Below, piece by piece: positions 10,177 to 14,591 of a stretch of DNA of 26,349 nt. Origin of the DNA: an uncultured Lachnospiraceae bacterium (GTDB lineage: Bacteria > Bacillota > Clostridia > Oscillospirales > CAG-272); assembly GCA_964609165.1 (NCBI GenBank), contig CAZSSE010000001.1, positions 1-26,349 on the forward strand, in the 5' to 3' direction. Numbering within the stretch: position 1 is the first letter of the stretch; every line of letters begins with the position of its first letter. The notes under the pieces are model-generated. The model worked only from the letters and a program-made list of their open reading frames with translations, had not been told where the DNA came from and did no database searches. The position numbers and the translations under genes are program-made.

Positions 10177-10613
10177 ATAATAGATCAATTTGCAAGCGGA
10201 GAAGTGCATTTTGTGAAAAATATTTTGATGATATTTAAGCGATTTTTCATTAAGCCTTCTGACGGCAGGTTGCTTTTGAAAGAACGATAGCAGGACGACT
10301 TGTTTTGCACGGCTGTGATCGACGGCACCGTAAAGGGGCGCGGAAGAAAATGGTTGATTTTTTTGGATCTTGCTTTGTTTTTATCAGTACTGTTTTTACT
10401 CGTCAGGGATGATTATATAGAAGCGCACACGCTATCGTTTGGTACATATGCTTGCTGTTACGGTGGTCTGCGCTTTTTTATTTTGAAATTTGAAATCCGA
10501 CGATCTGAGTATCGGGACAGATGTGTATTATCGTAGGTTATGCGTCCTTATGCGTCTGCCCATTATTATTTACGAAAATACCGTAGCACTTGGCTACTAT
10601 GGAGGTATATGAA

Positions 10614-12071
10614 ATGTTGAATGGTCTTTACGAGCGCTTGGGGACACAATCGAATGTTGCTGTTATTATTATCTCTGTCGCCATTATGCTGATATGCGGA
10701 TTTTTAATGACTCGTGTTACGAAAAAACTACGTCTGCCAAACGTGACTGCGTACATAATAGTCGGTATTCTGATCGGACCGTATTGCTTGGATCTTATTC
10801 CGAAATCTATCATAGAAGGTACGGAATTTCTCGCCGACATCGCACTCGCGTTCATTGCATTCAGTACGGGAGAGTTTTTCAAATTTTCAAAGCTGAAAAA
10901 CAGCGTAGGCAAGGTCGTGGTCATAACGCTTGCCGAGGCGCTTTTAGCGTCTGTGCTTGTATTCGTTCTTTCCTTCTGGATATTGCATCTGAGCCTTGCC
11001 TTTTCTATCGTTCTGGCTGCACTTGCATCGGCAACTGCCCCCGCCTCTACGATGATGACGATCAGGCAGACGGGCGCGAAGGGCGACTTTGTAGATACGC
11101 TTTTACAAGTAGTTGCCTATGACGACATCGTGGCTCTTCTGGCTTACAGCATTGCCATCTCAGTTGCCGTCACCTACACAACAGGCGAAGCCTTCAGCTT
11201 TTTGAACATTGTTGTCCCCATTTTGAAAAATTTCGGAGCCCTGGCGCTTGGCGGCGTATTCGGATTACTTATGAAGCTTCTGATACATAGAAAACGGTCT
11301 ACCGACAATCGCCTGATTATCTCTATTGCGCTTTTGTTCGCATTTTGCGGTATATGCGCGGCGATGGATGTTTCTCCGCTTCTCGGATGTATGTCTATGG
11401 GAACGGTGTACGTCAATCTTGCAGATGATGATAAGCTATTTAAACAGCTAAACTATTTCAGCCCTCCTATTCTGCTTCTTTTCTTCGTTCGCTCGGGTCT
11501 TTCCTTTGATTTAAATGCTTTGGTAAATCCCTCCGGCGCGATTGGCGGTGTTTCACTCTTGCTGATCGGCGTGTTGTATTTCTTTGTACGTATTATCGGA
11601 AAATACGTGGGCGCATTTCTTGGCTGTCTTTGTGTTAAAAAGCCCGTCAGAACCCGTAATTATTTGGGGCTCGCTCTTATTCCGCAGGCGGGAGTTGCAA
11701 TTGGTCTTGCGGCACTTGGTGCAAGAACGCTCGGCGGCGATGTCGGAAATGCCTTGCAGACCATTATACTTGCTTCAAGCGTGCTTTACGAGTTGGTCGG
11801 TCCCGCTTGCGCAAAGCTCTCGCTTTATTTGTCAAAATCGTATTCAACTAAGCTTGAAGACATAGTTCCTCTTAATAAAGAGCCGAGCACCGAGGAAAAA
11901 CCTAAAAACACCGTCGAGGAATTGATCGAGAGAATACAGATCATCCAAGGCGAGCTTGCAAAAGAGAAAATTAACGAAGAGGAGCACGCATTTACAGAGG
12001 CGGCTGAGGAACATTTTGAGGCTTTGTCGGTTCGCCATGCCTATCTTGCCTCGGGAGGAAAGAGAAAATGA
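10614..12071 (+). CDS. CPA2-family cation:proton antiporter with a charged helical C-terminal tail
   Basis: About 12-13 TM helices; LPNVTAYIIVGILIGP, ATAPAST, VAYDDI and RIIGKY motifs. ATG 10614 lies 7 nt after GGAGGT. Confidence 0.88.
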   Translation: MLNGLYERLGTQSNVAVIIISVAIMLICGFLMTRVTKKLRLPNVTAYIIVGILIGPYCLDLIPKSIIEGTEFLADIALAFIAFSTGEFFKFSKLKNSVGKVVVITLAEALLASVLVFVLSFWILHLSLAFSIVLAALASATAPASTMMTIRQTGAKGDFVDTLLQVVAYDDIVALLAYSIAISVAVTYTTGEAFSFLNIVVPILKNFGALALGGVFGLLMKLLIHRKRSTDNRLIISIALLFAFCGICAAMDVSPLLGCMSMGTVYVNLADDDKLFKQLNYFSPPILLLFFVRSGLSFDLNALVNPSGAIGGVSLLLIGVLYFFVRIIGKYVGAFLGCLCVKKPVRTRNYLGLALIPQAGVAIGLAALGARTLGGDVGNALQTIILASSVLYELVGPACAKLSLYLSKSYSTKLEDIVPLNKEPSTEEKPKNTVEELIERIQIIQGELAKEKINEEEHAFTEAAEEHFEALSVRHAYLASGGKRK

Positions 12072-12778
12072 TAGATCCTATTGCAAAAATACTTGGTGAA
12101 TGGTCTCAGGAGCTGAACGGATACAGTATTTTATTCAGAATTGTTTTATCGGTGACGCTTGCCGCCGTGATCGGCTGTGAGCGTTCAAGCAAACGTCACT
12201 CGGCAGGACTTCGCACCTTTATATTGGTGTCCTTGGCTATGACGGTGACTATGCTCCTTGACGGATATTTAATGGGAACGGGCACATACGTTCTCTCGGG
12301 CGCAGGCATTATAGGTGTGGCAATTATCAGCGTAAATTCCTTGCTTGTAAGCTCACGAAGTCAAATTAAGGGCTTGACCACTGCCGCAGGGCTTTGGACC
12401 TGCGCGATCATCGGTCTTGCGGTGGGAGCGGGTTACTACACGGTTACGTTTATTGCGTTTGGCGTACTGCTGTGCTGCCTTTCGATCTTCCCGTCGTTGG
12501 AGCGTTATTTGAAAAACAGATCTAACCATTTTGAAATACATCTTGAATTAAAAGATAACAGCTATCTCGAAAACTTTGTTACGACGATACGCAGGCTTGG
12601 CTTGCGCATTGATGATATTGAGGCAAATCCAGCTTACGCAGGCTCGGGGCTGAGCGTATATTCTATCGCAATTTCGATCAGCAGCCAGGAGCTGAAAAAG
12701 TATAAAACACACACAGAGATCATCGAGGCACTTCGCAGCTTGGATTACATTTGCCACATAGAAGAAATGTTACTTTGA
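12068..12778 (+). CDS. mgtC: MgtC/SapB-family membrane protein with an ACT-like C-terminal domain
   Basis: IGCERSSKRHSAGLRT and KGLTTAAGLW signatures. ATGA overlap with the antiporter. Confidence 0.9.
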   Translation: MIDPIAKILGEWSQELNGYSILFRIVLSVTLAAVIGCERSSKRHSAGLRTFILVSLAMTVTMLLDGYLMGTGTYVLSGAGIIGVAIISVNSLLVSSRSQIKGLTTAAGLWTCAIIGLAVGAGYYTVTFIAFGVLLCCLSIFPSLERYLKNRSNHFEIHLELKDNSYLENFVTTIRRLGLRIDDIEANPAYAGSGLSVYSIAISISSQELKKYKTHTEIIEALRSLDYICHIEEMLL

Positions 12779-12833
12779 TTTGGCACTTGATCTTTCCATA
12801 CCAAATGGTAAAAAATAAATGGAGAAAAATAAG

Positions 12834-13673
12834 ATGAAAACGAAAAAAAGGAACAAGAAACTGATTTTCCTTGCGTTTTGGCTTGCAACTATTGTATTGA
12901 TAGTTGTTGGAATAATATTGCTGTGGCCACCCGGAGCTAAGCATCAAACGATCAAAGAGGTCATGAAGGACGGAGTTTTGCATGAAGACAACAAGATGTC
13001 TTTATTTGGGCTTGAGGTAAATCCTGCGCTGATTTCCGCTTATACGGTTACGGCAATATTATTGCTTATAGCTGCACTTATAAGAATATTTGCAATACCA
13101 AAATTCAAGACCGTACCCGGTAAGCTTCAATGTGTTATCGAAAAGCTGGTGGAGTTCTTCTCGGATATGGCACACGCCAACAGTCATCACAGGCCACGTT
13201 TCGTGGGAGCGTATATATTCAGCGCGGGTATTTACATATTTTTCGGAACGCTGTTCGAGCTGTTCGGAGTACAATGGCTTACAACAGACGGGGTATCAGT
13301 GTCTCTCCCCGCGCCGTTATCGGATATCAATGCCGCAATAGCAATGGGAGTCATGTCATATATAATAATTCTCGGCGCAGGCATTATCTGCGGAGGCTTC
13401 CGCGGGGCACTCGGTGTCCTGAAGGACTTTTCGTTACCTATATCGATGAGCTTCCGCTTGTTCGGCGCACTGATCAGTGGATTGCTTGTTACCGAGCTTG
13501 TCTATTATTATGTAAGCCTCAGCTTTGTATTACCTGTAATCGTGGGAGTTCTGTTTACACTTTTACACGCTATCGTACAGACCTATGTGCTTGCAACGCT
13601 GGTATCGATATTCTACGGCGAAGCCGTTGAACCAAAGCCAAAGAAAGTTAAAATTAAGAAAGCTAAGAGGTAA
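12834..13673 (+). CDS. atpB: F1Fo ATP synthase subunit a, with an extra N-terminal hydrophobic helix
   Basis: VPGKLQCVIE, APLSDIN, PISMSFRLFG (essential Arg) and VQTYV...L motifs. ATG 12834 follows GGAG; the alternative start is 12819. Confidence 0.9.
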   Translation: MKTKKRNKKLIFLAFWLATIVLIVVGIILLWPPGAKHQTIKEVMKDGVLHEDNKMSLFGLEVNPALISAYTVTAILLLIAALIRIFAIPKFKTVPGKLQCVIEKLVEFFSDMAHANSHHRPRFVGAYIFSAGIYIFFGTLFELFGVQWLTTDGVSVSLPAPLSDINAAIAMGVMSYIIILGAGIICGGFRGALGVLKDFSLPISMSFRLFGALISGLLVTELVYYYVSLSFVLPVIVGVLFTLLHAIVQTYVLATLVSIFYGEAVEPKPKKVKIKKAKR

Positions 13674-13679
13674 ACTAAA

Positions 13680-14057
13680 ATGAAAAAAATTATATCTGTC
13701 ATTATATCATTGATTTTGATGCTTACACTTGTTGCGATGACGTCCGTCAGCGTTTCTGCCGCTGAGTCAGATTCTGCTCAAAGCGATGAAGCTGCTGCGG
13801 CTGTTGAAGAGACCGAGGCAAATAACAGCAGTGTTCTTTCTACTAAAGCTATCGCTGCCGCAATTGTTGTGGCGGTTGTTGGAGCGACGGGTGCCATCGG
13901 TATGGCGATCGCAATTTCCAAGAGTACCGACAGTATGGCTCGTCAGCCGGAAATAGCGGGAAAAATCAACTCGACAATGATGCTCGGCATCGTATTTATT
14001 GAAACTGCGATCATTTATGCCTTGATTGTCGCAATTCTTATTATATTTGTTTTGTAA
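13680..14057 (+). CDS. atpE: F1Fo ATP synthase subunit c with a ~51-aa N-terminal extension
   Basis: ARQPE loop and FIETAIIY ion-binding helix. RBS GAGGT before Met1. Confidence 0.93.
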   Translation: MKKIISVIISLILMLTLVAMTSVSVSAAESDSAQSDEAAAAVEETEANNSSVLSTKAIAAAIVVAVVGATGAIGMAIAISKSTDSMARQPEIAGKINSTMMLGIVFIETAIIYALIVAILIIFVL

Positions 14058-14069
14058 GAGGGAACGAAT

Positions 14070-14591
14070 ATGCCACTCAACATAGATTTTTTGCAGATTC
14101 TTCTGCATATGCTGAATTTTGTTATTCTTGCGGGTGGTCTTACTTTTCTTCTGTTCAATCCGGTCAGCCGTTTTTTGGAACAGCGCAGGGAGCAGCTTGC
14201 CGAAGCGGAAAGGCGGAACCGAGAGTTAGCTGAAGAAAATGAAAGACTTAGAACAGAGTATGAGCAAAAGCTGCGTGATGCCGATAGGGAAATCTCGGAT
14301 AAGAAGAAAACGGTAGAGAAGGAATGGGCGGATATTTCCGAGCAATACATCGTAGAAGCAAAGGAGAAGGCATCTGCTATCATCATTGCCGCAGAGAAGG
14401 AAGCGGAAGACCGCAAGGAGCACATTCTTGAATCGGCGCAGGCTGAGATCGGTGAGCTTATTGTTACGGCAACGCAGAAACTACTCAGCGATACAGTAAC
14501 CCCAGAACGCAACAGTGCTTTATACGACGAGTTTATACGTGTTGCCGAAAGCACTACTGCAAAAAAGAGGTCAGAGCATGATAAAAAATGA
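14070..14591 (+). CDS. atpF: F1Fo ATP synthase subunit b
   Basis: N-terminal TM (NFVILAGGLTFLLFNPV) followed by a long charged coiled coil; position after atpE. Confidence 0.9.
   Translation: MPLNIDFLQILLHMLNFVILAGGLTFLLFNPVSRFLEQRREQLAEAERRNRELAEENERLRTEYEQKLRDADREISDKKKTVEKEWADISEQYIVEAKEKASAIIIAAEKEAEDRKEHILESAQAEIGELIVTATQKLLSDTVTPERNSALYDEFIRVAESTTAKKRSEHDKK

Follow-up and report, generated by a model that had tools for sequence, protein, structure and literature searches.

The atpE gene and its predicted precursor

The window, which is the whole stretch of 26,349 nucleotides that was analysed, carries an F-ATPase operon in the order a-c-b-(delta-alpha)-gamma-beta-epsilon. The open reading frame at 13680..14057 (+), atpE, encodes an F-type c subunit of 125 amino acids, in which a predicted signal peptide and an acidic segment stand in front of a canonical hairpin. 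The features are listed below. A1 denotes an alignment of 25 diverse members of this c-subunit type.

12819..13673, + strand: atpB, subunit a, 284 aa, with PF00119 at residues 77-265
13665..13670, + strand: Shine-Dalgarno sequence AAGAGG of atpE, inside the last atpB codons, with the ATG 9 nt downstream
13680..13760, + strand: predicted type I signal peptide, residues 1-27, with n-region MKK, h-region 4-20 and c-region TSVSVSA
13761..13844, + strand: acidic tail or linker, residues 28-55, with 7 Asp/Glu and no Lys, Arg or His; predicted mature N-terminus, predicted to lie outside
13845..14054, + strand: canonical c hairpin, residues 56-125, matched by PF00137, TIGR01260 and PDB c-ring chains
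13845..13847, + strand: Lys56 at the outer boundary of helix 1, invariant in A1 and Lys in 290 of 295 homologues
Residues 56-87, + strand: helix 1, with the Ala-rich G68-x-T-G-A-x-G-M-A76
Residues 88-90, + strand: polar loop R88-Q-P90, invariant in A1
Residues 91-125, + strand: helix 2, with the carboxylate E108 (14001-14003), T109 and Y113; E108 is invariant in A1
14070..14591, + strand: atpF, subunit b, 173 aa, PF00430
14578..16356, + strand: in-frame fusion of the delta C-terminal domain and alpha, 592 aa from the ATG at 14578, with OSCP profile positions 88-171 and the alpha domains

The h-region of the leader is composed of 17 hydrophobic residues (4-20), and 24 residues lie from K3 to A27. 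The leader ends with Val at -3 and Ala27 at -1, and A28-E29 come next. Residues 28-51 (24 aa) contain seven Asp or Glu and no Lys, Arg or His. The counts are the same over the 28 residues up to Lys56. The c core comprises residues 52-125 (74 aa).

The start site was examined by a codon scan. In-frame ATG, GTG or TTG codons of atpE occur at codons 1, 11, 13, 14, 20, 64, 75 and beyond, and none was found between codons 20 and 64. A Shine-Dalgarno sequence accompanies Met1 only. GTG64 has none, and a start there would cut away half of helix 1. An internal start yielding a normal c subunit is thus ruled out. Of 77 related c genes, 62 likewise have a Shine-Dalgarno-like motif before their first ATG.

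These results bear on a sequence-only reading of the same DNA, which had described an MKK start, a hydrophobic stretch and a cleavage-like site after A27 at VSA|AE. All of them are present in the translation. Its counts, a 24-residue linker with seven acidic and no basic residues before a 74-residue core, are exact. The good ribosome-binding site that it placed at Met1 is AAGAGG, 9 nt upstream of the only start that has one. Its statement that no internal start lies near the core agrees with the codon scan, and the Ala-substituted helix-1 motif TGAIGMA is read as T70-G-A-I-G-M-A76.

Hairpin and ion site

The hairpin is recognised by standard models. PF00137 (ATP-synt_C) matches residues 58-121 with an E value of 4.6e-12 and 46.5 bits against a cut-off of 24, and TIGR01260 scores 44.6 bits against a cut-off of 43.95. 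Residues 51-123 can be aligned with the PDB c-ring chains 2wie, 1yce, 4bem and others. No NCBIfam model spans the extension; the c-subunit models match the C-terminal 70-85 residues only. The positions of the GxGxGxGxG motif in helix 1 are occupied by G68, T70, A72, G74 and A76. By analogy with the AxAxAxA rings of alkaliphilic Bacillus, the Ala-rich helix 1 could enlarge the ring.

The ion site was compared with that of Ilyobacter tartaricus by matching residues from the loop Arg of RQP. Glu108, Thr109 and Tyr113 are present; Gln32 is replaced by an invariant Met75 and Thr67 by Ala110. The full Na+ motif is thus absent, and H+ coupling appears more likely than Na+ coupling. Met75 (13902-13904) is invariant in the clade at a position where Na+-binding and many H+-binding rings supply Gln or Glu, which makes the ion site (also 14001-14018) unusual.

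Spread and conservation across Clostridia

According to the sequence-only reading, absence of the extension from close homologues would have spoken against it. Instead, the start consisting of n-region, h-region, AxA site and acidic segment was found in all of the 120 best 90%-identity clusters, whose lengths are 116-166 aa. An exhaustive HMMER search against 50%-identity representatives gave 281 matches at E<=1e-10. Among the best 150 of these 281 representatives, most have 115-180 aa and the same architecture at an identity of only 40-60%. Over 300 homologues, some with as little as about 40% identity, keep the frame and the architecture. AtpE homologues over 110 aa, for which the sequence-only reading had proposed a search together with their operon context, are abundant, bear a leader and share the atp operon order. 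A look-up in the ESM Atlas returned nothing beyond the Bacillota clusters of the protein itself.

A genome scan detected this c-subunit type in at least 588 species genomes, and the leader and acidic pattern was also seen in the 77 species genomes examined. The carriers belong to Oscillospiraceae, Lachnospiraceae, Ruminococcus, Anaerotruncus and Acutalibacteraceae. They are mostly metagenome-assembled genomes from gut and rumen, with a few isolates.

A rule-based signal-peptide test was carried out with 324 non-redundant homologues. The n-h-AxA layout was obtained for 295 of them, and most failures were mis-called starts or errors of the crude scoring. By this home-made rule, which favours Ala at -1, that position is Ala in 292 of the 295 passing homologues, 84% have Val or Ala at -3, cleavage is placed at position 27 in the median, and the +1 residue is Ala, Glu, Ser or Asp. 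Across the family the n-region contains Lys or Arg and a hydrophobic core follows, and neither a lipobox Cys nor a twin Arg occurs. The tail of these homologues has a median length of 28 aa (5-95% range 17-47) and a mean of 7.6 Asp/Glu. It carries a net negative charge in 100% of them and contains neither Lys nor Arg in 61%. In A1, K56 is invariant and A27 nearly so, and the h-region and tail sequences vary freely.

Pooled Nei-Gojobori estimates from 36 moderately diverged, mutually non-independent pairs put dN/dS at 0.29 in the leader and 0.40 in the tail, compared with 0.056 in the core. From these values it follows that the extension is translated and constrained, with the relaxation usual for leaders and disordered segments. 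The leader and tail pattern is not a product of chance. The sequence-only reading is supported in this respect: a translated, conserved extension with the form of a Sec/SPase-I signal peptide is followed by an acidic, base-free segment.

Operon context

The delta-alpha fusion is collinear with chain I of an engineered enzyme (9jc1_I) over query residues 25-574. No free delta gene was found, and the fused domain is the only OSCP match in the 80%-complete genome. The order a-c-b-(delta C-domain/alpha)-gamma-beta without a free delta was observed in all 77 related loci with c before b, in which a few alpha reading frames are shorter under the first-ATG rule and the fusion is clear in most. An assignment to the N-ATPases (atpDCQRBEFAG), whose operons begin with beta-epsilon and include atpQ/atpR, does not hold: the gene order differs, and the scores of the alt_F1F0 models lie well under the cut-offs.

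A further comparison used 41 genomes sampled without bias, the source genome and 40 relatives, and a c match was obtained in 15. All four leader-bearing c genes of the sample occur with the delta C-domain/alpha fusion and an N-terminally extended subunit a. Eight c genes are canonical, with 85-100 aa and an AETTGLY-type Na+ motif, and occur with a free delta. Three plain short c genes (70-75 aa) occur with other delta-alpha fusion formats. Every sampled leader-bearing c belongs to a fusion-type enzyme, though the fusion needs no such c. The possibility that the fusion requires a leader-bearing c is ruled out by three loci (L008, L013 and L018), which pair fusions with a plain c of 70-75 aa. 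These relatives, which belong to the same order, have other natural fusion formats: delta C-domain/alpha in L008, full-length delta-alpha in L013 and a b-like/delta/alpha triple fusion in L018.

At its N-terminus (12819-12990, +), atpB encodes a strongly basic segment and a TM helix, and after these an outside motif of ESIKEVMKDAVLHE type that is conserved in the clade. This extension precedes the usual start of subunit a and its Pfam core. It is conserved in the loci with a leader-bearing c, whereas the a subunits of L008, L013 and L018 are short (222-225 aa) and lack it.

Some relatives have a canonical F-ATPase instead, with a free delta of 176-180 aa (L009-L012, L014, L015, L017 and L019, in genomes G002, G009-G011, G016, G023, G028 and G032). 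Their c subunits of 85-100 aa have no leader, most carry a two-carboxylate/AETTGLY Na+-type motif, and most of these relatives are of the same genus. One genome, G028, has both F-ATPase types, and many relatives have no match to the leader-bearing c query. The patchy distribution suggests gain and loss or transfer.

In some Oscillibacter/Hominicoprocola-like genomes a second leader-bearing c gene is located upstream of atpB (c'-a-c-b), with the loop AEQPE versus ARQPE. It was found at the following places.

L043: 2208-2807, second c gene
L053: 2547-2927, second c gene
L060: 255-617, second c gene
L070: 2512-2889, second c gene
L088: 2485-2868, second c gene

The second gene may point to heteromeric rings or to a c paralogue with a specialised role.

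A Na_H_Exchanger-family antiporter gene and an MgtC-family gene, joined by an ATGA overlap, lie directly upstream of atpB at 10590-12778 (+). MgtC binds the Fo subunit a in Salmonella. A role of the two genes as part of the system is ruled out, since neither was found beside the operon among the 80 related loci, of which 54 include the full 4-kb upstream flank. The linkage is local to the source genome. The same genome also has a V-type ATPase on two contigs, C208 and C184 (L001 and L002). One contig ends with subunit I and the beginning of the K proteolipid, and the C-terminus of K with E and C is on another.

Proposed leader cleavage and membrane insertion

The N-terminal segment has the composition of a type I signal peptide: MKK, the hydrophobic residues 4-20 and TSVSVSA, with small residues at -3 and -1. 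The +1 position is Ala rather than a lipobox Cys and there is no twin Arg, so it is neither a lipoprotein nor a Tat signal. Genes for one YidC and for an S26 signal peptidase are present in the genome. The layout also corresponds to that of a procoat protein, in which a leader, a 28-residue loop with seven Asp/Glu and no Lys or Arg, and a TM helix follow one another, and YidC is present. Judged from these sequence features, atpE probably encodes a c precursor with a cleavable Sec/SPase-I leader, which would be inserted in a procoat-like manner and give a mature c of 98 aa with an outward acidic tail.

The following course of insertion is proposed. At first, the leader (residues 1-27) would act as a Sec/SPase-I-type signal peptide that inserts N-in/C-out as the hairpin partner of helix 1. 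Second, the acidic loop, with a net charge of about -7 and no basic residues, would be translocated much as in M13 procoat, assisted by YidC and/or Sec and helped by the membrane potential. Third, signal peptidase I would cleave after Ala27. The mature c of 98 residues would then join the rotor ring and retain an acidic tail of about 28 residues, presumably exposed on the outer face. The N-terminus of c faces outside in known F-ATPases, and therefore an N-in/C-out signal peptide before helix 1 is topologically consistent.

The conservation pattern points in the same direction. A variable h-region together with a near-invariant Ala at -1 would be expected of a cleaved leader and not of a packed ring helix. 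A tail that is poor in Lys and Arg and always net negative fits a translocated segment. YidC-only insertion is documented for both subunit c and M13 procoat (PMC9360617, PMC7618853).

An AF2 model with a mean pLDDT of 79 shows a helix at residues 2-22 (pLDDT about 85) and a coil at 23-38 (below 50 at 30-36). Helix 1 starts at residue 39, with low confidence over 39-55. The model suggests a partly helical outward extension of helix 1. The modelled helix 2-22 is compatible with a leader and with a retained TM helix alike.

The hydrophobicity of helix 1 was compared on Hessa-scale values, on which the best 19-residue window averages +0.3 in the leader-bearing type versus +3.0 in 12 canonical relatives. 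The leader was considered as a compensation for weak hydrophobicity of helix 1, but this is ruled out, because the leader-bearing type has the more hydrophobic helix. There is no obvious need for the leader: helix 1 is more hydrophobic than the canonical one, and canonical c subunits insert without a leader.

Acidic tail and alternative readings

The tail varies from 12-13 aa (P0219, P0220 and P0255) to about 90 aa (P0172 and P0180), and the leader with its AxA site is always kept. In the members with the shortest tails, the predicted mature protein does not exceed a canonical c in length. Because tail length varies while the leader and AxA site are constant, the leader would be the primary feature and the tail a secondary one. 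On these sequences, the leader is the conserved innovation and the tail a variable-length, compositionally constrained appendage. The tail itself may serve as a spacer or as an anionic brush.

The sequence-only reading had proposed a crown of acidic tails on the outer face of each ring. The outward placement stands, as the known topology would put the segment outside after cleavage. The precise crown does not fare as well, since a length between 12-13 and about 90 aa argues against it and for the leader as primary. That the cleaved-off leader leaves working tails, a rotating polyanionic outer crown which concentrates H+ or cations at the entry half-channel(s), plugs the lumen or docks a partner, is a tentative reading that we hold to be possible but doubtful. 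The net charge of the tail is negative in every homologue and 7.6 Asp/Glu are present on average, its dN/dS of 0.40 indicates some purifying selection, and AF2 extends helix 1 outward from residue 39. It also co-occurs with a subunit a that has a clade-specific conserved outside segment and with the delta C-domain/alpha fusion, which when engineered lowers the pmf needed for synthesis (PMC12229609). However, no tail sequence is conserved beyond the last few residues before Lys56, at lengths from 12-13 to about 90 aa, and the pLDDT of the tail is low (50-60). Export alone would also select an acidic, base-free composition, and related delta-alpha fusion enzymes have a short, tailless c.

A more elaborate version would tie 10-15 tails per ring, as a rotating polyanionic crown, to a natural multi-stalk Fo. 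The crown would serve as a proton antenna or lumen seal for up to three a subunits recruited by the fusion, and the c tail, the extended a and the fusion would be co-adapted for a low-pmf ATP synthase. We regard this as rather unlikely.

On the other hand, the N-terminal segment could be an uncleaved signal anchor, which would make c a three-helix subunit, each protomer adding a helix around the ring or within it. The hydrophobic run of about 17-20 residues is long enough for a signal anchor and the AF2 helix 2-22 is confident. However, the near-invariant Ala at -1, the common Val or Ala at -3 and c-regions rich in Ser, Thr, Pro and Gly speak for cleavage. The h-region is poorly conserved, unlike ring helices (dN/dS 0.29 vs 0.056). 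Judging from known c-ring structures, ten or more extra helices would be too many for the ring lumen, and outside they would block the a/c interface. The anchor is therefore considered decidedly improbable.

Finally, canonical c subunits have only 70-90 aa and the sequence-only reading had itself named a start near the hairpin as the outcome that would overturn it, but an annotation artefact with an upstream frame open by chance can practically be dismissed, given the lack of in-frame starts between codons 20 and 64, the half of helix 1 lost from a GTG64 without a Shine-Dalgarno sequence, the architecture kept in more than 300 sequences and a dN/dS below 0.5.

Comparison with known systems

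The preferred reading, a cleaved leader on a rotor subunit, has a reported precedent. The c subunit of Aquifex aeolicus is reported to be, as here, an F-type precursor with an N-terminal signal peptide before a normal hairpin. Zhang, Marcia, Langer, Peng and Michel (FEBS J 2013) reportedly found by mass spectrometry that this signal peptide is cleaved. The same study is said to have reported that the leader is necessary for membrane insertion, and the mature protein reportedly has a short tail only. The premise of the sequence-only reading that bacterial c subunits carry no cleavable signal was consequently too strong. The present case differs in several respects. It concerns a large clade of gut and rumen Clostridia rather than Aquificae. 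The tail predicted to be retained has 12 to about 90 acidic residues with a median of 28, in contrast to the short tail reported for Aquifex. The leader-bearing c is also paired here with a delta C-domain/alpha fusion and a clade-specific extension of subunit a. A full-text search of one library of papers found none on a signal-peptide-bearing bacterial c subunit and none on any of these features in Clostridia.

The c subunits of E. coli, Bacillus PS3, Ilyobacter tartaricus (1yce) and Spirulina (2wie) have the same hairpin with its RQP loop and helix-2 Glu, and their genes likewise lie between those of a and b. Canonical bacterial c subunits have neither leader nor tail, and here Ala replaces several Gly of helix 1. 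The Na+ motif is incomplete here, with an invariant Met in place of Gln32 of I. tartaricus.

M13 procoat resembles the precursor in its leader, its short, acidic, base-free outside loop and its TM helix. It is YidC-dependent, Sec-independent and cleaved by leader peptidase, but it is a phage coat protein of unrelated sequence with one mature TM helix (PMC9360617, PMC7618853). Nuclear-encoded mitochondrial c precursors of animals and trypanosomes also have a cleavable targeting sequence, which is removed before ring assembly (PMC3542316). That presequence is matrix-targeting, amphipathic, basic and imported by TOM/TIM, whereas the leader described here is hydrophobic and of Sec type. No acidic tail is left after processing of mitochondrial c, unlike in the mature c predicted here.

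For the stator, the closest counterpart is the engineered deltaDeltaN-alpha fused FoF1 of Bacillus PS3 (PDB 9JC1, Nat Commun 2025), a multi-stalk enzyme with a high H+/ATP ratio (PMC12229609). Natural delta-alpha fusions were pointed out in Acidaminococcus fermentans in the same work (PMC12229609). The enzyme of 9JC1 has the same delta C-domain/alpha fusion as the operon described here; its design concerns the stator and its c is canonical. The present operon appears to be a natural form of the engineered fusion design.

Conclusions

Subunit c is the textbook example of a YidC-only, leaderless membrane protein. The leader-bearing c of Clostridia is a variant of a rare, previously reported design. 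Hundreds of species of gut and rumen Clostridia encode c as a leader-bearing precursor with an acidic tail that is predicted to be retained. For annotation, this means that the atpE calls of 115-135 aa in these genomes are correct and that trimming them is unwarranted. Work on the natural multi-stalk candidates of Clostridia will meet a leader-bearing rotor, which matters for constructs, masses and tail density. In these bacteria nature offers a setting in which to ask why a signal peptide should be required by a rotor subunit, and what effect an exposed tail has on the rotating ring.
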